A DNA stretch of 64,000 nucleotides from Candidatus Caenarcanales bacterium (GTDB taxonomy: Bacteria > Cyanobacteriota > Vampirovibrionia > 2-02-FULL-35-15). Position numbers and translations under genes: made by a program. Every line of letters starts with the position of its first letter. Positions within the stretch are counted from its first letter, which is position 1. Under the pieces are notes generated by a model that worked only from the letters and a program-made list of their open reading frames with translations, made no database searches and was not told the DNA's origin. Positions 9,070 to 64,000 of the stretch are shown here, one piece after another. The DNA is taken from NCBI GenBank assembly GCA_020050435.1, contig JAGVKQ010000011.1, positions 3,350 through 67,349 on the forward strand. The letters are read 5' to 3'.

Positions 9070-9093
9070 GGGCTGGGTGACCCTGCCCTTACA

Positions 9094-10245
9094 TTAAGCA
9101 ATTTGTTTCTTGAATTGTCTGATAGCAAAGTACATGATAACTATTCCATATAGTAATAGAGGAATAACATCATGAATTACATCATTAAATCCTGCACCAC
9201 GAATAATAATGCCTCTTAAAATATCTAGGAAATAAGTTAAAGGAATAAAATATCCTATAAAACTCATAATAGGTGGCATATTATCTCTGGGGAAAATAAA
9301 TCCGCTTAGTAAAATAGATGGAATAATTACTAGTTGTAATAACTGTGTCGTTTGAGCAAGATTTGCTGATTTTGTAGAGATGAAAAGACCAATAGATAAA
9401 CTGGTAAATAAGAAAAATGTAGAGAGTATTGTTAATAGAAAATAGCTTCCATGGATAGGAACCTTAAATAAAAATACCATTACGAACGTTATTAATAAAT
9501 ATTGAAAAAATCCAATTAGTCCATAAGGAATTAGTTTCCCAATAAGTAATCCTCCCTGACCTACAGGAGATACCATTAATTGTTCTAATGTGCCTTTTTC
9601 TTTTTCCTTAACTATAGCCAGTGCTGTAATAAATGCAGTGATGATTTGCATAAGTACACCTAAGAGTCCTGGAATCATAAAGTTTGCACTTTTTAAATCA
9701 GGGTTAAAAAGAACTCTTGATCTGGTTTCAATTAAATTAGGATTAAATCCAATTGTTTCCGTTAGTATCATGGAGTTGAAATTAAGAAGAATTAGACTCG
9801 CTGTGTTAGATGCTTGTTGTGCTACTGAAGATTCCGAACCATCTACTAATAGCTGAACTTGAGTAGGTCTGCTGTTTAAAATATTTGCCTGAAAATGTTT
9901 AGGTATAATAAAACCTGTTTTAACTTTTCCGCTTACTACACTACTTAGTAACTCTTCTTCACTTTCAGGATAATAATTTACCTTGAAGTATTTAGATGCC
10001 TGTAATTTTTCTATAACTACTCTTGAAGTATTTGTTTTATCAAAATCTAATACTGCTGTCTTAATATTTTTAACATCCATGTCTATGGCATAGCCGTAAA
10101 TAATTAGCTGAACTGCAGGGATTAAAAGGGTGAGGGAAAGAGTGAATCTATCATTTAATATGTGGATGAACTCTTTATATACAATTGCTTTCATTCCCCA
10201 AAAGAAAGAGTTGTTTTTCAAATTATCTATTATTTTATTAAACAT
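9094..10245 (-). CDS. ABC-2 type transporter permease
   Basis: 383 aa with an N-terminal TM helix, a large periplasmic loop and C-terminal TM helices. It is co-operonic with the upstream ABC ATPase. Confidence 0.75.
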   Translation of the reverse strand: MFNKIIDNLKNNSFFWGMKAIVYKEFIHILNDRFTLSLTLLIPAVQLIIYGYAIDMDVKNIKTAVLDFDKTNTSRVVIEKLQASKYFKVNYYPESEEELLSSVVSGKVKTGFIIPKHFQANILNSRPTQVQLLVDGSESSVAQQASNTASLILLNFNSMILTETIGFNPNLIETRSRVLFNPDLKSANFMIPGLLGVLMQIITAFITALAIVKEKEKGTLEQLMVSPVGQGGLLIGKLIPYGLIGFFQYLLITFVMVFLFKVPIHGSYFLLTILSTFFLFTSLSIGLFISTKSANLAQTTQLLQLVIIPSILLSGFIFPRDNMPPIMSFIGYFIPLTYFLDILRGIIIRGAGFNDVIHDVIPLLLYGIVIMYFAIRQFKKQIA

Positions 10246-25376: not shown

Positions 25377-26264
25377 TTATATATCTGAGCTTCTAATAGT
25401 AAAATGATGCGCCCCAGATAAATTAATTAATTTATCTAATTTTTCTTGTCTTTCTTTTGTCGCTTTGGCGTATGCTGCATGGATATCTTTGCTATCAGTA
25501 TTAACAGTACAATGCTCTTTTGTCTCTGGGTCAAAAATAGTTATATATCCTGCTTTTGGCAATTCATAATCAATTTCATCATAGATTTGAAATAGATAAG
25601 TGTTTTGTTTTGAAGCAGTTTCAAAAAATATTTTTTCAAAATTATACAGATTAATAAAGTCACTAATTATAAAAATAATTCCTTTCTTTGAAAAATATTG
25701 CCTGGTGAAATCAATTGCTTTAAAAATGTTTGTAGTTTCTCTTTCTCCTGTAACTTTTTGATCTAAATTAAAATAGTAATCAAGCAATGTTTCAAAGATT
25801 ATATTTGTCTGAGCACTTGAGTGAGAAAGAGGGAAATGATACTTAATATCATCCTTGAAAAATATAGCTCCTACTTTCTCGCTAAATTTCGATGTTAGGT
25901 TTAAAACAAAAGCCACCGTTTTTATAAATGTCTCAAACTTTTCTCCACAAAACATTGAATTAGAAATATCTATGAGTAAAAGAGACTTAAATTCTTTTTC
26001 ACTGAAGTATTCTTTTGTGTGTAGTTTGCCAGTTTTAGCTGTAGTGGACCAGCTTATATGCCTTAAATCATCTCCAATTTTATATTCTCTAATTTCATTA
26101 AAATCAAAACCAGGACCTGAAAGCGTGCTTTGGAAGTGTCCAGCTATAGAAGATTCAATCTTCTTTAATTTGTTTTTATTCAGATCGACTTGCCTTAAAA
26201 AATCCTTTAAGCTCAGATTTGGGTTAGAGGATTTCTCTTGCAATAACGAGCTGTTGTATTTCAT
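25377..26264 (-). CDS. DUF58 domain protein; the start is uncertain (26264-26297) and overlaps the 3' end of the upstream acyl-CoA dehydrogenase gene
   Basis: GDDLRHISWSTTAKTGKLHTKEY matches the DUF58 signature D.R.I.W...AR...L.V.E. Confidence 0.55.
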   Translation of the reverse strand: MKYNSSLLQEKSSNPNLSLKDFLRQVDLNKNKLKKIESSIAGHFQSTLSGPGFDFNEIREYKIGDDLRHISWSTTAKTGKLHTKEYFSEKEFKSLLLIDISNSMFCGEKFETFIKTVAFVLNLTSKFSEKVGAIFFKDDIKYHFPLSHSSAQTNIIFETLLDYYFNLDQKVTGERETTNIFKAIDFTRQYFSKKGIIFIISDFINLYNFEKIFFETASKQNTYLFQIYDEIDYELPKAGYITIFDPETKEHCTVNTDSKDIHAAYAKATKERQEKLDKLINLSGAHHFTIRSSDI

Positions 26265-27315
26265 TCGTTCCTTCATAAATTTCAAGAACCTTTGCATCTT
26301 TATATGCTTTTGCTACATAAGAATCTTCTATTAATCCTTTCCCTCCCAGGATTTGGACAGCATTTGATGAGTGTCTTTGTGCTGCTTTTGTACTGAAGGA
26401 TTTACTCATGCTGGAAAGTTTATTTAATTCACTGCTGTTAGTGTCTTTTGCCCATGCTGTTTTATAAAGTAAAAGTCTGGCTCCATCTAGATCTTTACTC
26501 ATATCAGCTATGTACCATTGAATAGCTTGAAAATCAGAAATTGATTTCCCAAATTGATTTCTTTTTACACTATGTTTTACAGCTTCTTCTAATACACCAT
26601 TTAAAAGCCCGATGGCTTGTGCCGAACAGAAAATTCTTCCATTGGTAATAGTAGAAAGAGCAATTTTTACCCCATCTCCAGTAGTTCCTATAATATTTTT
26701 CTCGTCAACCTCTACGTCTTTTAAAATTATTTCATTTGAAGGTGTAGTTTTTATCCCTAGTTTTGGTGTACTTTCTTTTATTTCAATTCCTTTTTGTTTT
26801 GAGTCTATTAAAAAAGCGGTAATTCCAGACTTGTCACCTTTTTCTTTAGTTTGTGCAAATAAAATAATTAAGTCACATATTGATCCGTTGCTAGCCCAGA
26901 TTTTTTTACCATTTATGAGCCACTTGTTTCCATTTCTTACTGCATTTGTTTCAATCTGGCTAATGTCAGATCCTGCATTTTCTTCTGTAAGGGAAAAGCA
27001 TGAAATCTCTTTTCCGCTAATTAGATTTTCTAAGTGCTTATTTTTTATATCTTCACTTCCAAAACTCTTAATAATTTCAATGTTTGCAAAATGTGTAAGT
27101 AAAAACAATCCTATTCCTGGATCAAGTTTGCAAATTGTCTCAGTAAGTAAAATGTTCTTTAAGAAAGAGTTAGTGTTTGCTATGTAGTTATTTTTATATA
27201 ATTCTTGCCAGAGAGATCTTAGGTTTAGTTCACCTTTCAAGCTCTTTTTTAAAAAATCTTCTAAATCTTTTTTAAAGTCAACGTTTTCTTTGGACAATTG
27301 AGTTTGCATAAGCAA
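26224..27315 (-). CDS. Acyl-CoA dehydrogenase family protein
   Basis: 363 aa with the C-terminus LEIYEGTNEIQQLVIAREIL, the canonical ACAD ending, and an FAD-binding middle domain. Confidence 0.85.
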   Translation of the reverse strand: MLMQTQLSKENVDFKKDLEDFLKKSLKGELNLRSLWQELYKNNYIANTNSFLKNILLTETICKLDPGIGLFLLTHFANIEIIKSFGSEDIKNKHLENLISGKEISCFSLTEENAGSDISQIETNAVRNGNKWLINGKKIWASNGSICDLIILFAQTKEKGDKSGITAFLIDSKQKGIEIKESTPKLGIKTTPSNEIILKDVEVDEKNIIGTTGDGVKIALSTITNGRIFCSAQAIGLLNGVLEEAVKHSVKRNQFGKSISDFQAIQWYIADMSKDLDGARLLLYKTAWAKDTNSSELNKLSSMSKSFSTKAAQRHSSNAVQILGGKGLIEDSYVAKAYKDAKVLEIYEGTNEIQQLVIAREIL

Positions 27316-27367
27316 ATTATAACTTGTCCTATAGGTATAAACTCCTATACTAAATTGTTGATGAATC

Positions 27368-27568
27368 TTATGAGAGTAATAATCTTTTTTCTAATTCTTC
27401 AGAAATCTCATATAAATCAATAAGAAGGTTTCCAGTCAATGCAAAGTCTTCTGTTTCAGGGTCTAATCTTGTAATTTTTTCTTTAACTAAAATTAATCCA
27501 CCAAGTAAAGTCTTAGTTTCTACTTCTTGCCAGCTTTGATATGTCTTTTTTTGATGATTTCTTTCCAT
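27368..27568 (-). CDS. Small hypothetical protein (66 aa)
   Basis: It is the only ORF in a 375-bp gap, and support is weak. Confidence 0.25.
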   Translation of the reverse strand: MERNHQKKTYQSWQEVETKTLLGGLILVKEKITRLDPETEDFALTGNLLIDLYEISEELEKRLLLS

Positions 27569-27690
27569 TTTTTCCTTAAAAATCCTTATTTATATTGAAA
27601 CTATTAGGGGTAATTATCTTCGTATAAGTTATCTACCCACTATTTGTTAAAAAGTGGTATATATATAATTAAATAGTCTGAAAAACTTAG

Positions 27691-28761
27691 TTGTTTAAAG
27701 GATATCCCTCAATGTCATCACTAATATATTTATCTGGTCCACAATCAAAAGTAAGTGATCCTTCTTTTCCTATTTCTACTGATTGGAAAACTTATGCAGC
27801 AAGTACTTTTATGAAATCAGGAATTAATGTTTCAAACCCAATTGAGCTCGATCTTTCAGGGTTTGTTAGTACTACTGATGATTCTGGCAATGCAATTAAA
27901 TACTCATTGAACTTAATAGATAAATCAGATTCTCTTCTAGCTAATCTTTCTCAGGTTGCAGAGTCTACTACTATGGAAATGTTTTACGCTCATAATCAAG
28001 GTAAGAGAGTTGTAGTAGTAGGTAGTGAACCATTTAGTCCTTGGGTAATGTTTCATTCTGAAGCTAGATTTCAAAGATTGAGAGATGCTCTGGATTACTT
28101 AGTAAGCAATTCTCATGGTGTAGATAATGTTATGTGGGCAAGTCAATTTGAATCTCAGTTAGTAAAAAGATCTGAACAGTTTCCACCTCATGGCGAAGCA
28201 GATTTTGAGTATTATGGGGGTGACATTCCTGTTTTAGTAATTGCTCCTCATTCCACTAGTTATTTTAGAGGTGGGAATTTATACTCTCAGGAATCATTTA
28301 CGGGCTCACTTTCAGTTTTACTTCATCGGTTGTCTGGTTGCCATAGTTTAATTAGTTCTTATTGTATGGCTGCAGACCCAGTTCTATACTTGAATTCCCC
28401 TTTTTCAAATTTCACATCTCAATTGATTAAAAAATCAAATGTAAAACTTGTTCTTGTTCTTAGAGGGCTTGAATGGTCAAATCACAACGACTTGATTTTA
28501 AATAACAGAAATAAAAACTCATTGATAAATAAAACTGAATATTTAAATCTTTTAACAAGTATGCTCAAAGTTAAAGAATTTAAAGATATTGGATTTGATT
28601 CACCAGACGTGGCTATTCATCCGTTTTTTGAAGATCTTCCTGTTCCAGTTTTAGAGATTCATGTAAATAAAAGGTATAGATTGCCTAGTTTACACCCCAC
28701 TCAATTTTCTAATCTTTATACAGCTCTTGCACAGTATTTAATGCTTGTTGGTATTGGTTAG
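27691..28761 (+). CDS. Fusion protein: an N-terminal nucleoside 2-deoxyribosyltransferase-like (NDT/Rcl-fold) domain plus a ~230-aa C-terminal domain of unknown function
   Basis: LIYLSGPQ at the N-terminus and ESTTMEMFYAHNQGKRVVVV resemble the NDT-family YLAGP and GTAFELGYAYALGKPV blocks. The C-terminal half has no recognisable motif. Confidence 0.45.
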   Translation: MFKGYPSMSSLIYLSGPQSKVSDPSFPISTDWKTYAASTFMKSGINVSNPIELDLSGFVSTTDDSGNAIKYSLNLIDKSDSLLANLSQVAESTTMEMFYAHNQGKRVVVVGSEPFSPWVMFHSEARFQRLRDALDYLVSNSHGVDNVMWASQFESQLVKRSEQFPPHGEADFEYYGGDIPVLVIAPHSTSYFRGGNLYSQESFTGSLSVLLHRLSGCHSLISSYCMAADPVLYLNSPFSNFTSQLIKKSNVKLVLVLRGLEWSNHNDLILNNRNKNSLINKTEYLNLLTSMLKVKEFKDIGFDSPDVAIHPFFEDLPVPVLEIHVNKRYRLPSLHPTQFSNLYTALAQYLMLVGIG

Positions 28762-28796
28762 AACAGTTGATGGTTTGATAGTTGATGGTTTGATGG

Positions 28797-29321
28797 TTAT
28801 TTGAACCTTCGCTTGAATTTAAATGCACTCTTGTAAATTGTTTTTAAATCTTTTTTTAAGACTGGATGAATCAATTTTTTTTCTAGTTCTAATAATGGAA
28901 TTAAAACAAAATATCTTTTTTCAATTTTTGGATGAGGAATGATCAAGTTCTTAGTTTTAACAATTTTATTTCCATAAAAAAGAATGTCTAGGTCAATTGT
29001 CCTGGAGAAATACTGACGAGATGGCGAAACGCCCCATCTTTTTTCTCTCCCCAGCTTCCTCTCAACCCCCTTGCAAACTTTTAGCAATTGCAATGGTGTC
29101 AGCGAGGTCTCTATTTTAATTGCCCCATTTAAAAAATAACCAGACTTAATCCCTTCTTGTGGTGGGTTTTTAAGCATTTTTGAAATTTGTATAATTTTTA
29201 TCTTTTTATTTTTGCTTAGTAGATCAAGAGCATTGTTAAGATTTTTCTTTCTATTGCCTTTATTTGTACCTATGCCAAGGAGGACGGTTGATGGTTTATG
29301 GTTTTTGGTTGATGATTTCAT
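28797..29321 (-). CDS. folK: 2-amino-4-hydroxy-6-hydroxymethyldihydropteridine pyrophosphokinase (HPPK)
   Basis: 174 aa. The IDLDILFYG motif and the GPRTIDLDIL-like region are typical of FolK. Confidence 0.85.
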   Translation of the reverse strand: MKSSTKNHKPSTVLLGIGTNKGNRKKNLNNALDLLSKNKKIKIIQISKMLKNPPQEGIKSGYFLNGAIKIETSLTPLQLLKVCKGVERKLGREKRWGVSPSRQYFSRTIDLDILFYGNKIVKTKNLIIPHPKIEKRYFVLIPLLELEKKLIHPVLKKDLKTIYKSAFKFKRRFK

Positions 29322-29606
29322 GATCTTATGGTTTGATAGTCTTATGGTCTCATAGCTTCATGGTTTTCTTAACCATTTAACCAAATTATGAATAATGAAC
29401 TCCATTCTTTTAACAAACAGATAAAACGTACTACGTTTTACCAAACCTTAAGTAAATTTTAATGATCTTATAAAAAATGGCCTTGACTTTAAAAGTTAAG
29501 ATTTAGTAAAGTGTAAGTATATAGTCAATGACTATAGTTCTAAAGTTCATATCTGATCTATATAAAATAAGCATATAAGATAACAATATTTAAGGAAGGC
29601 ATACAA

Positions 29607-30599
29607 ATGACAGCTATCAAAGTAGGTAATTACGACGCAAAAGTAAATATTACAGAACTTGCAAAGTTAACAAGTAAACCTTTTACTGACCAAACCCCAG
29701 TTCAAGAAGTTACCGCTGCAGTTGTTGGGTTAAGTGATGCTCAATTACAAACCCAAGGATTACTTACTAATCCTGATGATTCACAAGTAAATTTTCAAGC
29801 TTTTATTGCTCAAGTTACTAATGTTAGGCAGGCTATGGCTAAAGTCGCAGCTGCACAAAAAACGCTTGGTGCAACATTTAATATTCCAAAAGAAGGTGGA
29901 AGTCTTGATATTCCTGATGGAGTAAAACTAGAAGCTGCTTCATTAAAAGTTGATGATAGTAAAGGTTTCACATTGACGGAAACAGAAGGTAAATTAAATA
30001 TTCAAATCACAGATGCAATTAAGTTAGCTAAGGGTCAAAATCATGAGATATCTTACACCATTGATGGTGTACCGCAAAAGGCTACTATTGGAGTGACTCT
30101 TAAAGCTGAAAATGCACCAGCAGCAACAAAATTAAATGCTAATTTAGAGAAGGATGTTGAAACGCCACTAGACAAGGTCCTTCCTGGATTTTCAAATGTA
30201 ACTTTTGAAGGTTCACAAATTACTCAATCTACTAAAAAAGTAGGAGAGAAAGATGTTCCTCATATTAAGCATAGTTCTGATAAGGACTTTACCGTTAAAG
30301 GAAAAGGAACTAAGGATGGTAAACCTGATGTACCGTTTGAACTAACTATTAAAGCAAAAGCCGCAGAAACATCAAAGACTTGGTCACTTTGGGTTGGTGG
30401 AATTGCAGCAGTTCTTGGACTTGTAGGTGTAGGAGCAGCAGCTACTAGTGATGGTAGTGCTAAACCATGGGTAACATTGATAACTGGAGCATTGGCTGCA
30501 CTAGGACTTAAATGGGCTGTTGATAGCTATTTAGATAAACCAGGAGATACTAAACCAGGAACTACTCCAGCAACAAAACCAGTAACAAATCCAACATAA
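29607..30599 (+). CDS. Hypothetical membrane-anchored protein (330 aa) with two C-terminal Gly/Ala-rich TM helices and a Pro/Thr-rich tail
   Basis: There is a strong Shine-Dalgarno (AAGGAAGG). The protein has no signal peptide. C-terminal WSLWVGGIAAVLGLVGVGAAA and WVTLITGALAALGLKWAV helices are followed by KPGDTKPGTTPATKPVTNPT. Confidence 0.5.
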   Translation: MTAIKVGNYDAKVNITELAKLTSKPFTDQTPVQEVTAAVVGLSDAQLQTQGLLTNPDDSQVNFQAFIAQVTNVRQAMAKVAAAQKTLGATFNIPKEGGSLDIPDGVKLEAASLKVDDSKGFTLTETEGKLNIQITDAIKLAKGQNHEISYTIDGVPQKATIGVTLKAENAPAATKLNANLEKDVETPLDKVLPGFSNVTFEGSQITQSTKKVGEKDVPHIKHSSDKDFTVKGKGTKDGKPDVPFELTIKAKAAETSKTWSLWVGGIAAVLGLVGVGAAATSDGSAKPWVTLITGALAALGLKWAVDSYLDKPGDTKPGTTPATKPVTNPT

Positions 30600-30721
30600 A
30601 CTTTTTAAAGGAGGAAAGTCCGGGCAATTCATGAATTGCCTCTTCAGGTTAGGAAATAAATCATCGATCATTTTTTTAATTAATAATATATTTTAAGTTC
30701 TTTTTTTTATAATTTTATTTT

Positions 30722-31981
30722 ATGATTTTAATAACACTATCACCAATGCCAGCTATGTATACTACGACTAGTGGTCGTAGTAAATTAGCGACTCCACGTC
30801 AAAGCTATGTAGGAAAAGCTAATGATTTAATGGGTGATATGGCTACCCAAGGTAAAAAATTTGCTGGATATGGCTGGGGACTTTTTAATATTGTTGTTGC
30901 TACCTTAATGGGTGTAAGTAGCTCAATTAGTGCTACTTTTATGAAAGACAATACTGCCGGTGATGTAGTTGCTAAAGGTGGAATTGTCGGAGCTGTACTT
31001 TTTGCAATTGCTGGGCTTTGGAAAATTATTAAAGTAAGTTCAGAAAATACGAAAGCTGAAAAGAAACATGTAAAAACGACTCCTTGTGATGCTGAAGAGA
31101 GATTAAAAAAAGAAGCTTGGCATGCACTTGTAGAACTCAATAAAGAGGATGGGTCAGATTTACTTAAGCCTGCTTCTTCAGAAAACGATGTATTTGCTAA
31201 GACTCTATCTGGTCGAGAACTACCAAGTTCTTTACATTCTTTACACTGTGCAAGGTTTGATGTTTTACAAGACTTATGTCAAAAAGATATTTTAAGAATG
31301 GATAGAGATTATAGGAGTAATTATATTGTAAAAGGTCTTTTACCTACTGAAGAAGAGTTTATAGAGGTGTCAAAACTCAGTGATCAATATGCTTTTTCTA
31401 GAGCTATTCAGGTTGCTGTTAATAGTAGTGTTGGAACAATAAATTCTAGTGAAAGGGAATGTCTTCCTGCTGAGTTTGTACATGTTTATGAATCGATTGA
31501 ATGCTATAAAGACTATGAAAGTCAACTTGAGCAAAGAATTAAAGTGACTCAGGCTGAATTAAAAACTTTTTCTGATGCTGGTAATCATGTTAATAGTGAA
31601 AATTTAACCAAATATATAGAACAGATTACTACTATTCATAATCGTTTGAAAATACTACAACAAGCAATGGTGTTTGCTTCTAATACCACAGATCCTGCTA
31701 GTAATGAAGCAGATTTAAGAAAAGCAAGTTTATATAGATCTGCAATTGTTTCAGGCTTTGAAATTAGAGGAAATTCATTAGTTGATATTACTAATAAAAT
31801 AAATGAAGAATTAGTTAAGCCTGATGGTGTAAATGCTCGAGTAGAAGAATTAGATAAATTATTCAAATGTCTTGTAACGGATATTGCTGCTGTAAAAGAA
31901 TTTCCATATGAAATTAAACAAAGTGAAAACCCTGATTATCTAGGATTGATTTATTTTGAGAAAAAACCTATTTCTGTTTAG
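30722..31981 (+). CDS. Hypothetical membrane protein (419 aa) with two N-terminal TM helices and a large soluble domain
   Basis: [21 protein letters not shown] and [20 protein letters not shown] are TM helices. The remainder is helical and unannotatable. Confidence 0.5.
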
Positions 31982-32378
31982 ACTTTTTATAATCGACAGT
32001 AACTGAAGTGCTTATTCCACCACGAGCAGTAAAATCACCTTTTACAGTAAGCTCTCTAGGTTTTAAAACTTTTACTAAGTCATCTGAAATCTTATTTGTA
32101 ATAAATTCGTAAAAAATACCCTTATTTCTATAGTCTAAAAGATAATACTTTAAAGATTTTAATTCAATGCATAATTTATCGGGTATATAGTTAATTGTAA
32201 TTGTCCCAAAGTCTGGAAGCCCTGTTTTTGGGCATACTGATGTAAACTCAGGGCAATTAATAGAAATGCTGTAATTCCTTTTTGGATTTGGATTATTGAA
32301 TGTTTCTAAGATGTTTTTCTCTCTTTTATTCATATGATTTCTATTATATAGTGAATTATCGTATAGCGGATAGCGCAT
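31968..32378 (-). CDS. queF: NADPH-dependent 7-cyano-7-deazaguanine (preQ0) reductase
   Basis: 136 aa. [17 protein letters not shown] is the QueF catalytic-Cys motif, and the size fits the unimodular type. Confidence 0.9.
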
Positions 32379-39548: not shown

Positions 39549-40580
39549 TTATGGTATTTGACCGACGGTATCAAGCCCCATCTTTTCATTAAATCCAAGC
39601 ATTAAATTCATATTTTGAATAGCTTGACCAGATGCGCCCTTAACCATGTTATCAATGGAGCTTACTAGGATTAATCTATTTGTTTTTTCATCTTTCAGAG
39701 GAGTTAAATGGCAGAAATTTGTATATCTGACATTTTTAGTATTAGCATACATGTTTTCAGGTAAAACTTTAACAAAGTACTCATTTTTATAAAAAGCTTT
39801 ATATAAAGCATGAATTTCTTTTTGATTAATTTTAACTTTCAAGTCTGCATAAATTGTGCTCAATATTCCTCTGTTTATTGGTAAAAGATGTGGGGAGAAA
39901 GTAGCATTTATATTTTTTCCTGCTAATTTTGATAGCTCATTTTCAATTTCTGGTAGGTGTCTATGTTTTCCAGCTAATGCATAAGGTGAAAAAGATTCAT
40001 TTACTTCACAAAAATGTGTCTCTGGTTTTGCTTGTTTGCCGGCGCCGCTAGTACCTGACTTAGAATCAATAATAATAGAATTAAGTTTAATTAATCCACT
40101 CTTTAATGCAGGAGCTAATGCAAGGATCGCTGAAGTCGGATAGCAGCCTGGGTTTGCTATAAATTGAGATTTTTTAATTTGACTTCTGTATAGTTCTGGT
40201 AAGCCATATGTAACTTTTATTTTTTTCTTGAAAGTTGTTTCTAGTCTGAAGTCAGCACTTAAATCCACTATTTTTAATTTACTGTTTTCACTTAAAAGCT
40301 TAGGAATGTAATCTTTTGAAAAGCCATGTGGAGTAGCCATAAATACAACATCACATTCATTTGCAATTTTTTTTGCATCTGTTTTTTTACATTTGTCTTC
40401 TAGAACTCCATAAAAAGTCGGATATATATCAGAGAATTTTTTATCAGCATGTTGCTCAGATGCTAAGTATATGATTTCTATATTAGGATGATTTAATAAT
40501 AATTTTACAAGCACTACACCTGTATAACCAGTAGATCCTAAAATACCTATTTTTGTCTTTGTCCTTACCATTTGTTTCAT
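39549..40580 (-). CDS. argC: N-acetyl-gamma-glutamyl-phosphate reductase
   Basis: The N-terminal NAD motif is ILGSTGYTG. The active-site block NPGCYPTS is diagnostic for ArgC. Confidence 0.9.
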   Translation of the reverse strand: MKQMVRTKTKIGILGSTGYTGVVLVKLLLNHPNIEIIYLASEQHADKKFSDIYPTFYGVLEDKCKKTDAKKIANECDVVFMATPHGFSKDYIPKLLSENSKLKIVDLSADFRLETTFKKKIKVTYGLPELYRSQIKKSQFIANPGCYPTSAILALAPALKSGLIKLNSIIIDSKSGTSGAGKQAKPETHFCEVNESFSPYALAGKHRHLPEIENELSKLAGKNINATFSPHLLPINRGILSTIYADLKVKINQKEIHALYKAFYKNEYFVKVLPENMYANTKNVRYTNFCHLTPLKDEKTNRLILVSSIDNMVKGASGQAIQNMNLMLGFNEKMGLDTVGQIP

Positions 40581-40592
40581 TATATACCAAGC

Positions 40593-40617
40593 AGAGACGC
40601 CCCATCGGGGCGTCTCT
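40593..40617. promoter_or_regulatory. Perfect GC-rich 11-bp-stem hairpin (agagacgcccc atc ggggcgtctct) in the divergent argC/queE intergenic region
   Basis: Read directly. It is strikingly GC-rich for this genome and is not positioned as a terminator, since both flanking genes point away from it. Confidence 0.5.
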
Positions 40618-40660
40618 CCAACTTGATTTAATATACTTTTTATATTGCTACAATACTGCT

Positions 40661-41425
40661 ATGGATAATAAAAACCTCTACTTATCTGAAATTTTTTCTG
40701 CTATACAAGGGGAAGGCCCAATAGTAGGGGTAAGGCAAATATTTCTAAGATTTAGTGGTTGTGATATTCGGTGTGTTTGGTGCGATACGCCTGAAAGCCT
40801 TGTAAAAGTTAAAGGTTGTAATTGTGAAACCAAAGCAGGATCTAGAAAATTTGAAGTAGAAACAAATCCCATTTCAAATTTAAAGCTTATAAATTTAATT
40901 TCTAAACTGCAGCCAGAAATTCATCATAGTTTTTCTTTAACAGGAGGTGAGCCCCTTTTACAGAATAAAGCAATGCTTGAAATCATTCCAATTTTAAAAG
41001 AAAAATTTCTGCTTCCTATTTACCTTGAAACGGGTGGGCATAGAGATGATAAGCTTGCTAAAGTTATCCATTTGATTGATTATGTTTCAATGGATTTTAA
41101 ACTCCCTACATCAGCTAGAACAGTCTCATTCTGGGATAAGCATAAAAGATTTTTGTCCATTGCACTAAAATCAAAAAATGTAAAAAAAATATGGGTTAAG
41201 GTCGTTATTACCAGTACTACTTCAATGGTTGAACTTCAAAAAGCAGTAAATCTTGTTAAAAGTTTCAAATCAGATATTGATATTTTTATGCAGCCAGTTA
41301 GCCCTATAAATGGAATAAAACCACCTGATGAACTTTCTATACTTTCTATTCAGTCTAAGCTTTTAAAAGTTTATCCACATATTAGAGTTCTTCCACAGGT
41401 ACATAGATTGATGGGACAGAAGTAA
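40661..41425 (+). CDS. queE: 7-carboxy-7-deazaguanine synthase-like radical SAM protein
   Basis: LYLSEIFSAIQGEGPIVGVRQIFLRFSGCDIRCVWCDTPES matches the QueE N-terminal cluster motif. The ORF-track start at 40553 runs through the GC hairpin and is unlikely. Confidence 0.8.
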   Translation: MDNKNLYLSEIFSAIQGEGPIVGVRQIFLRFSGCDIRCVWCDTPESLVKVKGCNCETKAGSRKFEVETNPISNLKLINLISKLQPEIHHSFSLTGGEPLLQNKAMLEIIPILKEKFLLPIYLETGGHRDDKLAKVIHLIDYVSMDFKLPTSARTVSFWDKHKRFLSIALKSKNVKKIWVKVVITSTTSMVELQKAVNLVKSFKSDIDIFMQPVSPINGIKPPDELSILSIQSKLLKVYPHIRVLPQVHRLMGQK

Positions 41426-45153: not shown

Positions 45154-45229
45154 TGTCATTCTGAAGGAGTGAAACGAACAAGAATCTATTTTCGTTGATG
45201 GATTCTTCGCTAACGCTCAGAATGACACT
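45154..45229. repeat. Family A-variant nested palindromic repeat (gtcattctgaagg...gctcagaatgac with inner cgaacaagaatc...gattcttcgc), abutting the folE stop codon
   Basis: Read directly. Confidence 0.5.
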
Positions 45230-45827
45230 AGCCCCTAATCAGCGATAGTACTTCTGCTCTTGTAGCCTGGTTAGTTTCAAAAATACCTTTTAAAACAGAT
45301 GTAGTTGTTTTAGCTCCTGGTTTTTTAATTCCACGCATAGTCATGCACATATGTTCAGCTTCTATGACTACGGCTACTCCCATGGGATTTAGTTTTTCAA
45401 TTATTGCATTAGCAATTTGCATTGTTAGTCTTTCTTGTACTTGTGGTCTTTTGGAAGCGGTTTCTACCACTCGGGCTAATTTGCTAAGTCCTGTAATAAT
45501 TCCATTTTTTGGTATGTATCCTACATGTGCTACTCCGAAAAATGGTACTAAATGATGCTCACACATACTATAAAAAGGAATATCTTTAACTAGAATTACT
45601 TCAGAGTGATCTTCTTTAAAGGTAATTGAGATTTCATCTTTAGGATCTTTATCTATTCCTGAAAATAATTCAAAATACATTCTGGCTACTCTGTTAGGAG
45701 TATGTAATAAACCATTTCTTTCTGGGTTTTCACCTACTGCTAGTAGGATTTGTTTCACAGCATTTTCTATGACTTCAATTTTCTCTTTTCCTGCTTTGTT
45801 TAAAATATGTTCAATATCGTTATTCAT
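45228..45827 (-). CDS. folE: GTP cyclohydrolase I
   Basis: [10 protein letters not shown] and the HVGYIP block are FolE signatures, and the size is 199 aa. Confidence 0.9.
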
Positions 45828-48129: not shown

Positions 48130-49980
48130 ATGTTTATATTACAGATAAATAATCCAGCACAAGTACAAAAAACAGGCAAAGGAAATGGAATTACAGATTT
48201 TCCTAATGGACAGGCAGCATGGAATGGAACAACCTATGGTTCACGTAAAGAAGCTGAAGCTGCTTGGAACGCCAGCTTTAACTCTAGGGGTGGTATGAGG
48301 GCTCCCCAAAACAATGGTGGTGGTAATGCTAAGGCACAACAAAAAGTAGCTCGTGGAAACGATATGATGCAAGGTGGTCATGCAAAAATTCAAGTAGGTA
48401 ATGATGATGTCCAAGGTGGAGGAGCTAAAGTAGAAAAAGGAAATGGAAATGTTAAGTCTGGTGGAGAGAAAGTTAAAACAGGAAATGAAAAAGTTAATGG
48501 AGGAAATACTAAACTCAAGTCAGGAAATGAAAAGATTGCAACAGGAAAAGGAAAGGTAGAAACTGGTAATACTAAAATAGAAGAAGGTAGTGCAAAAATT
48601 AAAGAAGGTCAAGAGAAACTAAATGGATCTCCTGCTAATGCAGATGCTCAAACTGGAATTAAAGAAGGAGAAGCTAAAATAAACTCCGGTAATGAAAAAA
48701 TTACAGGTGGTCAAACAAAACTTACAGATGGTCAAGCAAAACTTACAGATGGTCAAGGTAAGGTAACCGCTGGACAAGGAAAAGTTACTACTGGACAAGG
48801 ACTTGTTCAAACAGGTCAAGGAAACATACAGGCTGGAGGTGCAAAAGTTCAGGCAGGTCAAGCTACCGTTGCAGCAGGACAAGCTTTAGCTGGTCAAGCT
48901 CAGGCATTAATGGCAGATCCTAAAACTGCTGCTCAAGGTCAGGCAATGATGCAGCAAGCACAAGGTCAAATTCAAAAAGGACAAGCTGAAATCCAGGAAG
49001 GTCAACAAAAAATTCAACAAGGACAAAAAGAAGTTGCTGATGGTCAGTCTCAAATTCAAACTGGTCAAGCTGAAGTAAGTCAAGGGAATGCTGATGTTCA
49101 GAAAGGTCAAGCAGATATACAAGCTGGACAAGCAGATATTCAACAAGGACAGCAAGAAGTACAAGAAGGGCAACAAAAAGTAACTGAAGGTCAAGCAAAA
49201 ACAGATGGTAGTGCTGAAGCTGGTGAAGCAAATGAACTTATTAATGCAGGTAAAGCATTACTTGATGCAGGAAAAACTGAAGTCAAAGCTGGCAATGATG
49301 ATGTCAAAGCAGGAAGTGATGAAGTTGAAGCCGGAAAGAAAGATGTAGATGTTGGAAGTAAAGAGGTTGGAGAAGGAAATAAACTTGTAGAATTAGGAAA
49401 TAAAGATGTGGGCGATGGAAATAAAGATGTAGATAAAGGTCAAAAGAATATTGGTGATGGAAATAAAGATGTCCAGGCTGGACAAGATTTGGTAAAAGAA
49501 GGTGACGCTGCAGGCGGTGGTGGTGGTCCTGGCGGAGCTGGTGCTGGTGGTGCTCAACCACAAACCCCAGATGCATCAGGTGGAGCAAGTCCTGGTGGTG
49601 GTGATGGAGGCGGTGGTGATGGTAAAGAAGCAAAATCCGGTGATGGAACTGCTAATGGATACCTTCAGGCTGCAAAAGCTTTATTAAAACAAATTGGACA
49701 AATCTCGCAAGCAATGTCTGGAAATGCAAATCCTATTATTCAGATAGCTAAAAATCTTACGAATAAAGGACTTGCTGAACAAGCAGTTGCATATCTTGAA
49801 GCTGCACAGGTAGATTCTACCATTGGTGGTCAGTCTATAAATCAAGATATTATTCTTACAAAGGCTATGGCATCTACTTGTAAAGGTGATGCAGATACAA
49901 ACATAAACTTCTGGAAAGAAACTCTTGCAGACAACAAATCTCTTGGTAAGGCCACTCATGACTTAGCGAAGATGGCGTAG
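48130..49980 (+). CDS. 616-aa repeat protein made of more than 100 tandem heptads of the form G-[QN]-x-[KD]-[VI]-x-x, a poly-Gly linker and a conserved ~110-aa C-terminal module
   Basis: There is a strong Shine-Dalgarno (AAGGAGAAAAG). Examples of the heptads are GNEKVNG, GNTKLKS, GQADIQA and GQQEVQE. The C-terminal ANGYLQAAKALLKQIGQISQAM...DLAKMA module is shared with two downstream paralogs. Confidence 0.6.
   Translation: MFILQINNPAQVQKTGKGNGITDFPNGQAAWNGTTYGSRKEAEAAWNASFNSRGGMRAPQNNGGGNAKAQQKVARGNDMMQGGHAKIQVGNDDVQGGGAKVEKGNGNVKSGGEKVKTGNEKVNGGNTKLKSGNEKIATGKGKVETGNTKIEEGSAKIKEGQEKLNGSPANADAQTGIKEGEAKINSGNEKITGGQTKLTDGQAKLTDGQGKVTAGQGKVTTGQGLVQTGQGNIQAGGAKVQAGQATVAAGQALAGQAQALMADPKTAAQGQAMMQQAQGQIQKGQAEIQEGQQKIQQGQKEVADGQSQIQTGQAEVSQGNADVQKGQADIQAGQADIQQGQQEVQEGQQKVTEGQAKTDGSAEAGEANELINAGKALLDAGKTEVKAGNDDVKAGSDEVEAGKKDVDVGSKEVGEGNKLVELGNKDVGDGNKDVDKGQKNIGDGNKDVQAGQDLVKEGDAAGGGGGPGGAGAGGAQPQTPDASGGASPGGGDGGGGDGKEAKSGDGTANGYLQAAKALLKQIGQISQAMSGNANPIIQIAKNLTNKGLAEQAVAYLEAAQVDSTIGGQSINQDIILTKAMASTCKGDADTNINFWKETLADNKSLGKATHDLAKMA
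48340..49500 (+). repeat. Coding 21-bp tandem repeat array, the heptad repeats of the 616-aa protein
   Basis: There is a clear 21-nt periodicity, for example ggtcaagcagatatacaagct / ggacaagcagatattcaacaa. Confidence 0.7.
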
Positions 49981-50006
49981 TCTAGCGATTAGATTATTAG
50001 AAATTG

Positions 50007-50040
50007 AAAAGAGAAGGCATTCATGGTCTTCTCTTTTTGT
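50007..50040 (+). terminator. Terminator-like hairpin aaagagaaggcattcatggtcttctcttt followed by ttgtttgttt
   Basis: The stem is about 9 bp with one mismatch. The loop contains gcattca. Confidence 0.45.
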
Positions 50041-50053
50041 TTGTTTATCTTTT

Positions 50054-50140
50054 AAGACCATTTGACAATAGGACTATGGAGACCATGTCGTCTCACAAAA
50101 ATGGTCTTATGGTCTCCATAGTCTTTATAGTCTACCCCTA
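50054..50140. repeat. Family B palindromic repeat, copy 2 (taggactatggagaccat ... atggtctccatagtcttta)
   Basis: Its arms form an approximately 18-bp inverted repeat, and it is a near-copy of 46589-46690. Confidence 0.5.
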
Positions 50141-50217
50141 GATAACGTTCTCTTAAATATGTCCCTGTTAAATGTCCTGTAACTAGTTCAAAACTAGTAT
50201 AGGAATTTTACATTGTT

Positions 50218-51129
50218 ATGAGACATATAAATTCAACAAACAATATTAATAAAAAACCTGATGTAAATAAGTCAGATAATGCTTCTCAGGAGTCTCCTGC
50301 CCTAAAAGCAGCTAATGCAAAACTCTTACAATCAATGCAATCACAAGCTCAATCAATAAGAAATTTGTCACAAGCCCCATCACAAAATAATCAGGATTTA
50401 AATGTAATTAAAGATAGAAATCAATCTTTATTAGACTTTGATAAAGCTAAAGTTGAATCATTAAAAGAAGATTCTACTAATACAAATAATCAATCAATAG
50501 AAACAGAGGATGCTTCTGGTGGTAGTGCTTATAGTGGTGGATTTTTATTAGGCAAAGATGATTCTACTGGATATAAGGGATATGACCAGTCTCGTGCAAA
50601 TGATTGGAAAGAAGGTAAAGGAATATATTCTACTGGTGGAGCATATTCAACATATACAGGAAATGGTGCAGAAAATCTTAGTGGTTCTGGAGGAGCTGGT
50701 TCTGGTAATGCTGGAAATCAAAATGTAGGAGCTAGTTCTGGTAATGCAAATTCTGGTGGAGGAGTTTCTACTTCTGATAGCGGAAGTGCTGCTGGAAGTG
50801 CAAACGGATACTTGCAGGCTGCAAAAGCATTATTAAAACAAATCGGACAAATCTCACAAGCAATGGCTGGAAATGCAAATCCTATTATTCAGATAGCTAA
50901 AAACCTTACTAATAAAGGGCTTTCAGAGCAGGCAGTAGCATATTTAGAAGCAGCTCAGGTAGATACTACTCTCGGTGGTCAGGCTATAAATCAAGAAATT
51001 ATTTTAACGAAAGCTCAGGCAAGTACTATTAAAGGTGATTCAGATACTAATATTAATTATTGGAAAGAAACTCTTGCAGACAATAAATCTATGGGCAAGG
51101 CTACTCATGACTTAGCTAAGATGGCGTAA
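50218..51129 (+). CDS. Hypothetical protein (303 aa), paralog family member with an MxHINS N-terminus, a G/S/N-rich middle and the conserved C-terminal module
   Basis: The N-terminus MRHINSTNNINKKPD...KAANAKLLQSMQSQAQS is shared with the 51366 gene. The C-terminal 110 aa are about 85% nucleotide-identical to the 3' end of the 616-aa gene. Confidence 0.6.
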   Translation: MRHINSTNNINKKPDVNKSDNASQESPALKAANAKLLQSMQSQAQSIRNLSQAPSQNNQDLNVIKDRNQSLLDFDKAKVESLKEDSTNTNNQSIETEDASGGSAYSGGFLLGKDDSTGYKGYDQSRANDWKEGKGIYSTGGAYSTYTGNGAENLSGSGGAGSGNAGNQNVGASSGNANSGGGVSTSDSGSAAGSANGYLQAAKALLKQIGQISQAMAGNANPIIQIAKNLTNKGLSEQAVAYLEAAQVDTTLGGQAINQEIILTKAQASTIKGDSDTNINYWKETLADNKSMGKATHDLAKMA

Positions 51130-51159
51130 CGTAGCATAAATCGTTTTGTTAATTACCCT

Positions 51160-51187
51160 GTAGGGGCATTGCATTCAATGCCCCTAC
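51160..51187 (+). terminator. Strong terminator hairpin gtaggggcattg catt caatgcccctac followed by ctcttttac
   Basis: The 12-bp stem is perfect, and it contains gcattca as well. Confidence 0.6.
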
Positions 51188-51365
51188 TCTCTTTTACACC
51201 AACATTTTTATTGGACATTGTTCTCCTTGTTCTGTTCTCCCCTAAAAGTCCTTTTTGCCTTTATTCTCCTTTGTTCTCCTTTGTTCTCCATAACTTTCCC
51301 TTAAATATTCCCCTGTTAAATACCCTTTAACTAGCTCAAAACTAGTATAGGGATATTACATTGTT

Positions 51366-52643
51366 ATGAAGCATATAAATTCAATAAATGGAATTAACCA
51401 ACAGGCCGATTTAAGTAAGCCAGGTAATAACGTTGAGGATGTTTCATCACAAAAAGCTGCTAACAGTAAATTGCTTTCTTCTCTTCAATCACAATCTCAA
51501 TCAATGCGAGCTGCAGCACAAGATAATTCACAATTAAGTTCTAGTAAAATAAATGAAAGAGCAGAGTACTCTAAAGATTTTAATAACTCAAATAAAACAT
51601 CACAAGAGTCTAGCGAAACATCAGTAAATAAAATTAAAGAATCTATTGATTTAATGAGTAGTTCATTTTTCAAAAAGACTGAATCAAGATTACTTAAAGA
51701 ACAAGCAAAAACTGAACCTGGTGAAGTTGCTCAGGAATTAAAAAGACAATCTAAAGAAAAACTAAAAGAGGCAATAGCAGATTTTAGAGGTTCATTTAAG
51801 GCTTACAATAAATCACAAGAAGAGGATATGAATGCATTTCAAGCAAGCATGGACGCTTCTAATTCTCAAGACTTAGCTTCTGGTGCACAATCTCAATCTA
51901 ATCAAGCTCAAGTTAAAGCGGTGACTTATAATAATCAGGCAAATAGAACATCAGCAGAAGCTACAACTGTACAAACCCAACAAACACAAAGTCAGTCAGT
52001 GCAACCTCAGTCATCACAAACTCAGTCAGGAGAAACTAAGGATGCTTCTGGTGGGAGTTTATTTGGACCTAATGCAGGATTATTTTCAAATCCTTCCCCT
52101 ACTGCATACAATGGGATGGATCAATCTCGTGCTAATGATTCTCGTAATAGTAAAGGAATCTTTGCTACTGGAGGCGGAGTCTCAGAAATTACAGGAAATG
52201 GTGCAGTAAATTCTAACAATAATGCTAATGCTAATGCTAATGCTAGTGCTGGTGCTTCAAATGGTGCAGATCCTTCCGTTGACACTAATGGTGCTGATGG
52301 ACTTAGCGCTGCAGGTAATGCATATTTAGATGCAGCACGTATGATGCTTAGAGTAGTTATGCAAGTAACGATTGGTGCGAGAAGTTCAAATCCAATTGTT
52401 CAAATATCAAAAAACCTAACTAATAAATCTTTGTCCGACCAAGCTATAGCATATTTAGAAGCAGCAAACGTTGACACTGCTCTTAATGGTACAGCAGTAA
52501 ATCAACAAATAATTCTTACTAAAGCTCAAGCAAGTACTATTAGTGGTGAAGCACAAACAGGTATTAATTACTGGAAACAAGTTCTTGAAGGTAACAAACA
52601 ACTTCAAAAAGAAACACATGATATGTCTAAGGCTGCAGGGTAA
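51366..52643 (+). CDS. Hypothetical protein (425 aa), the third paralog, with an MKHINS N-terminus, a Q/S/N-rich middle and a more divergent copy of the C-terminal module
   Basis: MKHINSINGINQQAD...KAANSKLLSSLQSQSQS at the N-terminus and C-terminal GNAYLDAAR...NPIVQISKNLTNKSLSDQAIAYLEAANVD...ILTKAQAST...NYWK are shared with the other paralogs. The 5' leader is near-identical to that of the 50218 gene. Confidence 0.6.
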   Translation: MKHINSINGINQQADLSKPGNNVEDVSSQKAANSKLLSSLQSQSQSMRAAAQDNSQLSSSKINERAEYSKDFNNSNKTSQESSETSVNKIKESIDLMSSSFFKKTESRLLKEQAKTEPGEVAQELKRQSKEKLKEAIADFRGSFKAYNKSQEEDMNAFQASMDASNSQDLASGAQSQSNQAQVKAVTYNNQANRTSAEATTVQTQQTQSQSVQPQSSQTQSGETKDASGGSLFGPNAGLFSNPSPTAYNGMDQSRANDSRNSKGIFATGGGVSEITGNGAVNSNNNANANANASAGASNGADPSVDTNGADGLSAAGNAYLDAARMMLRVVMQVTIGARSSNPIVQISKNLTNKSLSDQAIAYLEAANVDTALNGTAVNQQIILTKAQASTISGEAQTGINYWKQVLEGNKQLQKETHDMSKAAG

Positions 52644-55018: not shown

Positions 55019-55105
55019 GGACAGGTGTTCGAGTGGTTTATGAAGATAGTCTTGAAAACTATTGATGCCGTAAGGTATCCGGGGGTTCGAATCCCTCCCT
55101 GTCCT
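55019..55105 (+). tRNA. tRNA-Ser (anticodon UGA), class II with a long variable arm
   Basis: Manual fold: acceptor ggacagg/cctgtcc, D-arm ttc/gaa, anticodon stem atagt/actat with loop cttgaaa (anticodon TGA), a long variable arm, and T-arm ggggg-ttcgaat-ccctc. CCA is not encoded. Confidence 0.8.
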
Positions 55106-63790: not shown

Positions 63791-64000
63791 AGCCATGGAG
63801 AGTTTGATCCTGGCTCAGGACGAACGCTGGCGGCATGCCTCATACATGCAAGTCGAACGCCCCGCAAGGGGAGTGGCGTAAGGGTGAGTAACGCGTAGGA
63901 ATCTGCCTTAGACTGGGGGATAACCTGGGGAAACCCGGGCTAATACCGCATATTGCCGAGAGGTGAAAGATTTATCGGTCTAAGATGAGCCTGCGTATGA
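63791..64000 (+). rRNA. rrs: 16S ribosomal RNA, 5' end only; the gene continues beyond the window
   Basis: AGAGTTTGATCCTGGCTCAG at 63799, then GACGAACGCTGGCGGCATGCCTCATACATGCAAGTCGAACG, then GAGTAACGCGTAGGAATCTGCC. Confidence 0.9.

Follow-up and report, generated by a model that had tools for sequence, protein, structure and literature searches.

Members of the nucleoside 2-deoxyribosyltransferase (NDT)/DNPH1 superfamily carry out covalent glycosyl-enzyme chemistry with a Tyr and Glu pair. The described systems closest to the N-terminal half of the protein analyzed here are DNPH1/Rcl, the bacterial NDTs (PF05014; PDB: 7o62, 6evs, 1f8x, 8os9), and the MilB/BlsM CMP hydrolases. In LlNDT and DNPH1, Asp72 and Asp80, respectively, are the residues that contact the sugar 3'-OH. 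The described systems closest to its C-terminal half are the N-formylglutamate amidohydrolases (FGase; PF05013; PDB: 2q7s, 2odf) and the poly-gamma-glutamate hydrolases PghP/PghL (PF05908, MEROPS M86; PDB: 3a9l, 5onj). In PghP/PghL, the zinc ligands are His40/41, Glu45/46, and His103/102, and Glu165, the equivalent of carboxypeptidase A Glu270, is essential (PMC6506827).

The protein under study joins a divergent relative of each group in a single chain, and it is encoded in the window, that is, the whole 64,000-nucleotide stretch of a Candidatus Caenarcanales bacterium contig that was analyzed. If the assignments given below are correct, an N-glycosidase-type domain is joined in an undescribed architecture to an FGase/PghP-type domain in which canonical zinc-hydrolase residues are gone and a Cys has become invariant. 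The searchable literature holds no description of an NDT-like plus FGase-like combination or of the degenerate active site seen here, and nothing relevant was found in the literature on PF15891 or on FGase, GGACT (gamma-glutamyl cyclotransferase), and amidoligases; the combination thus appears undescribed, while both folds are well known.

The open reading frame 27691..28761 (+) that had been listed in a first-pass annotation of this DNA is present and opens with TTG at 27691, although its start was moved. In an alignment of 63 homologues, every sequence starts with the Met whose codon lies at 27712 (MSSLIYLSGP), for which reason we place the coding sequence of the two-domain protein at 27712..28761 (+; 349 aa plus the stop codon). 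The motif AAAGGA is found 9-14 nt upstream of the ATG at 27712. Residue numbers follow the 356-residue reading frame that opens at 27691. The NDT/DNPH1-fold domain spans residues 8-140 (27712..28110, +), and the FGase/PghP-like alpha/beta domain, counted together with the Glu154-bearing helix at its N-terminus, spans 28111..28758 (+). The gene is monocistronic in the window. The 143 bp divergent intergenic region upstream of it (27569..27711) is the expected seat of both promoters; a consensus scan disclosed no promoter-like site in this region, and a promoter and terminator scan of 27300-29400 gave sites no more numerous than in shuffled sequence.

From 5.8 billion proteins, 63 homologues were recovered with E values of 6e-222 to 2e-60, which is far beyond chance. 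They measure approximately 350-380 aa unless truncated, and the two-domain architecture of ~356 aa is common to all 63. The family as a whole is small, with about 144 distinct sequences of one architecture throughout, and within the searches made it is confined to genomes and metagenomes of Melainabacteria/Vampirovibrionia. Few of the homologues carry names, of the kind 'hypothetical protein [Candidatus Melainabacteria]'.

When one genome per species was scanned, 100 genomes proved to carry a relative, and the 80 best loci were kept. Their labels are mostly Melainabacteria, Obscuribacterales, or Cyanobacteria; a few metagenome-assembled genomes labeled Gammaproteobacteria, Flavobacterium, or Planktothrix are probably mislabelled bins, because these labels clash with the shared synteny. 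The 80 loci fall into two groups, a low-GC group of eight (L001-L008) with 56-68% identity and a GC content of ~32-35%, like that of the window, and a large Obscuribacterales-type group with 35-42% identity. The fusion is a genuine gene maintained by selection, and the searches, as far as they reach, place it in Vampirovibrionia only. Should our reading of the protein hold, it belongs to the conserved core of non-photosynthetic cyanobacterial relatives in at least two orders.

The sequence similarity of the N-terminal domain to DNPH1/Rcl, the bacterial NDTs, and the MilB/BlsM hydrolases is below threshold, and sequence profiles gave no significant match to solved NDT structures. The window protein itself matched PF15891 with 20.4 bits (cut-off 30) and PF05014 with 20.1 bits (cut-off 28.8), both with E ~7e-4 and under the gathering cut-offs. 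When 22 diverse family members were scanned, PF05014 matched 22/22 and PF15891 matched 21/22, with a best E of 2.8e-8. The domain displays the flavodoxin-like alpha/beta NDT fold. Its profile also recovered standalone ~125-aa PF05014/PF15891 proteins with E values of 1e-12 to 1e-4, several of them named 'nucleoside 2-deoxyribosyltransferase'.

To place individual residues, we aligned the N-terminal domains of the window protein and one Obscuribacterales member with 16 standalone proteins and human DNPH1, whose sequence was verified against PDB chains beforehand. Only three columns are invariant in this alignment: Tyr13, Gly16, and Glu96, which correspond to Tyr24, Gly27, and Glu104 in DNPH1, respectively. 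When hhalign compared the N-domain profile with DNPH1 alone, the alignment agreed with this placement, but its probability was just 4%. The Tyr-x-x-Gly motif (LlNDT Tyr7, DNPH1 Tyr24) is thus present, with Tyr13 (27727-27729, +) in 142/144 non-identical fusion members and Gly16 in 134/144, and so is the Glu that acts as catalytic nucleophile in LlNDT (Glu98) and DNPH1 (Glu104), represented by the predicted nucleophile Glu96 (27976-27978, +) in 141/144. Lys105 is retained in 143/144 members, Asp80 and Asn85 in 144 each, Trp118 in 144, and His122 in 141; these residues, together with Gly16 and Asp77, are encoded within 27712..28110 (+). The 'YLSGP' and 'ME..YA...GK' blocks, on which the first-pass annotation had based its proposal of an NDT-like N-terminus, were recovered and are invariant or nearly so, and with both the NDT-like profile matches and Glu96 found, that proposal stands. 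Judged by its sequence, the N-terminal domain is a divergent member of the NDT/DNPH1 N-glycosidase superfamily with a strictly conserved Tyr/Glu pair.

Several features set the domain apart from DNPH1, the NDTs, MilB, and BlsM. The column of the 3'-OH-binding Asp (Asp80 in DNPH1) is occupied by Ser72 in the window protein and by Ser in 70 and Ala in 72 of the 144 fusion members, within a loop whose alignment is of modest confidence. The fusion proteins have a 12-residue insert after Gly-Pro, they add the invariant residues Asp31-Trp32, Asn49-Pro50, Trp118, and His122, and they alone carry the 215-aa C-terminal domain.

The closest relatives of the N-terminal domain are uncharacterised standalone proteins of ~125 aa that belong to PF15891/PF05014 (P0244-P0277; 27-33% identity over ~90% of the length), here called 'SPW-motif' proteins. 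They share with the fusion the blocks D-W-(K/R), (D/N)-P, CD-x-(V/L)-LAN, GTAME-x-FYAH-x-x-GK, and SPW-x-x-H, so that the N-terminal domain is part of an uncharacterised 'SPW-motif' branch of PF05014/PF15891. In contrast to the fusion, these proteins are single-domain and contain a basic DPMRRDxR block and the Asp, both of which are missing from the fusion; the sequence NP(I/L)ELD stands in place of the basic block. Since the 3'-OH Asp column holds Ser or Ala and the basic block has been replaced, the chemistry or the substrate of the domain may differ from those of known NDTs, and neither substrate nor sugar specificity of the fusion is to be read across from characterised enzymes by analogy.

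The C-terminal domain had been described in the first-pass annotation as lacking any match by eye. No direct Pfam, NCBIfam, or PDB-sequence match was obtained for the domain of the window protein, which in this respect differs from FGase and PghP; relatives are nevertheless detectable. An AF2 model of the domain alone (pLDDT 85.6, pTM 0.86) has a carboxypeptidase-like alpha/beta fold, nearest to FGase and PghP, with Foldseek ranking 2q7s at the top (E 3.6e-6) and the M20, M28, M14, and Amidase_3 zinc hydrolases next after the closest matches. Searched exhaustively with HMMER, the C-domain profile yielded 733 cluster representatives, 372 of them at E <= 1e-10, and most are standalone proteins of ~220 aa. 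Among the best 149 of the 733, PF05013 (FGase) was found in 67 and PF05908 (PghP) in 5; fusion partners in the same set were GGACT (7), CDC48_N (8), SLH, and SH3, and the NDT-like N-terminal domain occurred in just 5. The link of the window domain to PF05013 and PF05908 is transitive, running through this wider family, and hhalign joined the fusion C-domain to the wider family with a probability of 100% (E 5e-47). On the strength of this profile-profile match, we assign the domain, by the transitive route, to the FGase/PghP-like superfamily. Its sequence relationships place its descent within the FGase/PghP-like zinc amidohydrolase family, of which it represents an uncharacterised FGase-like branch.

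The nearest relatives of the C-terminal domain outside the NDT fusions are uncharacterised proteins in which GGACT precedes an FGase-like domain (P0068, P0077, P0089, and others; E 1e-36 to 1e-17). They follow the same layout, namely an N-terminal catalytic domain of ~125 aa, the Glu154 helix, and the FGase-like domain. They differ in that GGACT takes the place of the NDT-like domain and in that the catalytic signature of the C-terminal domain is complete.

To evaluate the active site, the PghP sequence (from AB091475.1) was aligned with the wider family by hhalign, a global alignment included. The PghP segments 'SPHAGGIEVGT', 'VSFHG' (His103), and 'VQLEIS' (Glu165) correspond to 'APHA...(D/E)xYTG', 'DLHG', and 'QxEI' in the wider family, respectively. 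Carried over to the window protein, PghP His40 corresponds to His187 (28249-28251, +), Glu45 to Glu201 (28291-28293, +), His103 to position 258, and Glu165 to position 324. The first two zinc ligand positions are retained in the fusions, with His187 in 141/144 and Glu/Asp201 in 142/144 members. Conservation is lost, in contrast, at the third His ligand and at the general-base Glu. In the window protein, Arg258 (28462-28464, +) stands at the position of the third ligand and His324 (28660-28662, +) at that of the general base, and among the 144 fusions position 258 is H50/L40/M18/V13/R11/S4 and position 324 is R52/E40/K24/D15/G5. A full H-E-H-E set remains in 34/144 members. The fusions also retain His218 (139/144), Asp229 (144/144), and Arg330 (141/144), all encoded within 28111..28758 (+), where the window protein also has Val256 instead of Asp.

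The extent of the loss is evident from 137 relatives without the NDT-like domain, in which H187, R193, K198, D/E201, T204, D229, N231, K239, D256, H258, G271, Q322, and E324 are each 83-98% conserved. Seven of these residues (K198, N231, K239, D256, H258, Q322, and E324; 83-96%) are present in 14/14 of the GGACT-fusion and standalone relatives that were tabulated. In the NDT fusions inspected, N231, D256, G271, and Q322 are absent from every member, and K198 and K239 are replaced with one or two exceptions each. What the fusions have gained relative to FGase and PghP is Cys225 (28363-28365, +), a family-specific residue found in 144/144 members; none of the tabulated relatives has Cys at this position, nor is it among the common residues of the wider-family column. 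Cys225 lies in a loop of what was once the active site, and by global hhalign this loop corresponds to the substrate-binding loop of PghP. We had also considered an equivalence of His218 and PghP His78, which was dropped because the global alignment puts the His78 loop of PghP at the DPN loop of the family.

These residue patterns demonstrate that selection on the NDT fusions does not act on the canonical third ligand or the general base. The domain as a whole is conserved on par with its partner, with identities between the two main clades of 35-37% for the C-terminal domain and 39-43% for the N-terminal domain, which argues that it is maintained by selection, though not as a canonical zinc amidohydrolase. 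A functional metal site could be made up of His187, Glu201, His218, Cys225, and Asp229, and because 34/144 members retain H-E-H-E, hydrolase activity may persist in domain 2 of some lineages.

The interpretation we prefer, to which we give an even chance of being correct, is a nucleoside or nucleotide N-glycosidase with a repurposed, non-canonical amidohydrolase-like module and a housekeeping role. The protein would be a cytoplasmic two-domain protein specific to Melainabacteria/Vampirovibrionia, in which Glu96, by analogy with NDT/DNPH1, would attack C1' of a nucleoside or nucleotide, with the base being released or exchanged. Domain 2 would no longer be a canonical zinc amidohydrolase and would probably serve as a ligand-binding, oligomerisation, or regulatory module; alternatively, it would hold a re-tooled site around His187, Glu201, His218, Cys225, and Asp229. 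The cellular role would likely be nucleotide salvage or sanitation, not one related to conflict.

A different possibility is that both domains are catalytic and act on one nucleoside-amino-acid conjugate, from which the amidohydrolase-like domain removes an acyl, peptidyl, or gamma-glutamyl group while the NDT-like domain cleaves the glycosidic bond. The amidase site would then be re-shaped, consisting of His187 and Glu201 together with Cys225, His218, or Asp229, and the 97-100% conservation of His187, Glu/Asp201, His218, Cys225, and Asp229 (n=144) is in agreement with a bifunctional enzyme, as are the position of Cys225 in the loop matching the substrate-binding loop of PghP and the H-E-H-E set of the 34 members noted above. 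The sister GGACT plus FGase-like architecture has an intact hydrolase site, a hint that two chemical steps are coupled in the wider family. However, the third zinc ligand and the general base vary freely in the NDT fusions (H/L/M/V/R/S at 258 and R/E/K/D/G at 324), Lys198, Asn231, Lys239, Asp256, and Gln322 are near-invariant in the active-looking relatives and lost here apart from rare exceptions at Lys198 and Lys239, and the window protein carries Arg258 and His324. We therefore consider a bifunctional enzyme unlikely.

The eroded C-terminal site would also suit a pair of pseudoenzymes, that is, a mostly non-catalytic protein that binds a nucleotide or another ligand and has a regulatory or structural function. 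In a third, divergent clade (P0066, P0069, P0078), Glu96 is replaced by Pro or Lys, so that the core role of the family might be non-catalytic. The gene directly following in Obscuribacterales encodes CutA1 (PF03091), which points the same way, CutA1 being a PII-like small-molecule-binding protein. In the two main clades, on the other hand, Glu96, Tyr13, Asp80, Asn85, and Lys105 are essentially invariant over ~36-97% identity, the pattern expected of a working active site, and a pair of pseudoenzymes accordingly seems to us quite improbable.

If the N-glycosidase with a repurposed second domain is the correct reading, the family shows cleanly, in nature, how an active site can erode and be put to new use once two domains have fused, since the sister GGACT fusions keep the site intact. 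It would likewise provide work on nucleotide salvage with a concrete enzyme to target in a phylum that has been little studied. No long-standing question is opened by it, no new defence or toxin system is indicated, and a finding of this kind is unsurprising.

The genomic context was compared across the two groups of loci. Upstream of the gene and divergent from it lie a 66-aa gene with no family assignment (27368..27568, -) and an acyl-CoA dehydrogenase (ACAD) gene, and folK lies downstream and convergent, 36 bp off. The 66-aa frame had been regarded as an orphan; it occupies the same position with 60-89% identity in 8/8 low-GC relatives, so we take it to be a real small gene, a neighbour and not demonstrably a functional partner. 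The low-GC relatives keep the order LamB/YcsF, thioredoxin reductase (TrxR), DUF58, ACAD, the 66-aa gene, the fusion gene, folK, and further on queF, which is 3.2 kb from the gene across the window's clade. A functional link to folK was rejected, given that folK has shifted away from the gene in L006 and L007 and is absent nearby in all Obscuribacterales-type loci. In the latter loci, none of the window's neighbour genes is linked to the gene. There, CutA1 follows directly 3' in 69/72 loci and is probably co-transcribed with it, an acyl-CoA synthetase gene lies ~350 bp beyond CutA1, and a DUF3465 gene lies divergent upstream.

This neighbourhood also bears on the suggestion of the first-pass annotation that the gene sits in a non-housekeeping gap and might encode a nucleotide-depleting toxin, an anti-phage immune effector, or a nucleoside-antibiotic tailoring enzyme, roles in which the fold does recur. 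The surroundings instead proved to be housekeeping and syntenic in relatives, with LamB/TrxR/DUF58/ACAD and folK in the window's clade and CutA1 and acyl-CoA synthetase in Obscuribacterales, and no immunity-like or biosynthetic genes are adjacent, nor was an immunity-like partner found. Neither the protein nor its neighbours gave a PADLOC match above noise or any match in PHROGs, the fusion was not found in 2.9 million viral contigs or in 72,556 plasmids, and the sole match in the phage collection was to a C-domain relative only, with 26% identity. Base composition at the gene is unremarkable relative to the rest of the window. The housekeeping synteny, the lack of defence, phage, and plasmid matches, and the ordinary composition together identify a vertically inherited chromosomal gene and not a conflict system, and we hold a toxin, immune, or antibiotic-tailoring role to be extremely improbable.

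A narrower form of the housekeeping view would make the protein an N-glycosidase peculiar to Vampirovibrionia and devoted to the salvage or sanitation of a modified nucleotide or nucleoside, with its C-terminal domain re-tooled around Cys225, His187, Glu201, and Asp229. We regard this as a long shot. One candidate substrate class would be the 7-deazaguanine (preQ0/preQ1/queuosine) nucleosides or nucleotides, faintly hinted at by the proximity of queF in the window's clade and by the QueF adjacency of standalone relatives. The queF link is absent in Obscuribacterales, and the papers found on QueF and deoxyribosyltransferase concern DpdA, another fold. The genes of the standalone SPW-motif proteins neighbour QueF in one lineage or lie on phage-like contigs; the QueF arrangement, in which the two genes are divergent and 18-20 bp apart, was seen in five loci that represent two related proteins and one common QueF-NDT-SufBD synteny.

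As a final observation on annotation, source databases label the fusion protein either hypothetical or 'nucleoside 2-deoxyribosyltransferase domain-containing'.

The small neighbor of the NDT fusion gene, a 66-aa ORF on the minus strand (window 27368-27568), had been called an orphan in the first-pass annotation; this description did not hold, since both its position and its sequence are retained in 8/8 of the low-GC close relatives carrying the fusion gene, with amino acid identities of 60-89%. A near-invariant motif, DFALTGNLLIDLYEISEELEKRLL, is located at its C-terminus, and no family match was detected in Pfam, NCBIfam, PADLOC, or PHROGs.

A different gene adjoins the fusion gene in the Obscuribacterales-type loci (L009-L080). 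In 69 of the 72, a CutA1 gene (PF03091, ~108 aa; for example, L015 at about 9090-9420) starts ~1 nt past the fusion gene stop, and this minimal gap suggests that the two genes are co-transcribed there. The 64-kb window itself has no CutA1 gene.

Comparison of the ±8-kb loci around the fusion gene in the eight close relatives disclosed a small variable island (window 29607-31981) within otherwise conserved synteny, with folK (28797-29321, minus strand) and queF (31968-32378, minus strand) conserved on either side. The island encodes two lineage-specific proteins of 330 and 419 aa on the plus strand; no homologue of the former was found in these loci, and the latter has only weak homologues (24-26% identity) in two of them, L004 and L008. 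This queF, a queE-like radical-SAM gene (40553-41425, plus strand), and folE (45228-45827, minus strand) were recognized from motifs by eye only; in addition, queF is ~40% identical to a gene of L086/L087 that belongs to PF14489 (QueF). These three genes and folK are dispersed across the window and form no cluster.

A QueF gene also adjoins P0264 and P0245, the standalone proteins most closely related to the N-domain; the two genes are divergent with 18-20 bp between them, and SufBD lies downstream. This arrangement is seen at L086/L087 4588-5381, L090/L092 3601-4381, and L091 2208-2988. Two other standalone relatives, P0275 and P0248, are located on phage-like contigs, one with a portal gene.

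P0066 (L081 1358-2473), P0069, and P0078 also combine NDT and FGase-like domains but form a divergent clade of their own, the third, in which Pro or Lys replaces the N-domain catalytic Glu and the C-domain is likewise devoid of its catalytic residues. The second gene upstream of P0066 in L081 belongs to the MazG family. Seven proteins (P0068, P0077, P0089, P0097, P0102, P0130, and P0199) instead join GGACT (gamma-glutamyl cyclotransferase) to an FGase-like domain. Their layout is identical to that of the NDT fusion, but their catalytic signature is intact. This uncharacterized family may process gamma-glutamyl compounds. Amidohydro_1 and DAP-epimerase genes precede its representative in L082 (5424-6479).

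Six loci, L001, L025, L029, L069, L070, and L077, carry the titles Gammaproteobacteria, Proteobacteria, Flavobacterium psychrophilum, Planktothrix, Actinobacteria, and Drouetiella. Because their gene content and identity agree with Melainabacteria/Obscuribacterales loci, errors in binning or labelling of these MAG contigs are likely.

Elsewhere in the window, the DUF58 ORF (25377-26297) and the acyl-CoA dehydrogenase ORF (26224-27315), both on the minus strand, overlap by 74 nt as listed (26224-26297); translation of DUF58 probably begins at an ATG further downstream. Three tandem paralogues (48130-52643, plus strand) share a ~130-aa C-terminal domain (identities of 80% and 50%) following low-complexity, G/A/Q/S/N-rich N-terminal parts. 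GC (0.39-0.41) and AT skew (+0.24 to +0.33) reach their window maxima at 48-50 kb. The plus strand further carries tRNA-Ser(TGA) (55019-55105) and a 16S rRNA gene that is cut off by the window end, leaving its 5' part (63792-64000).
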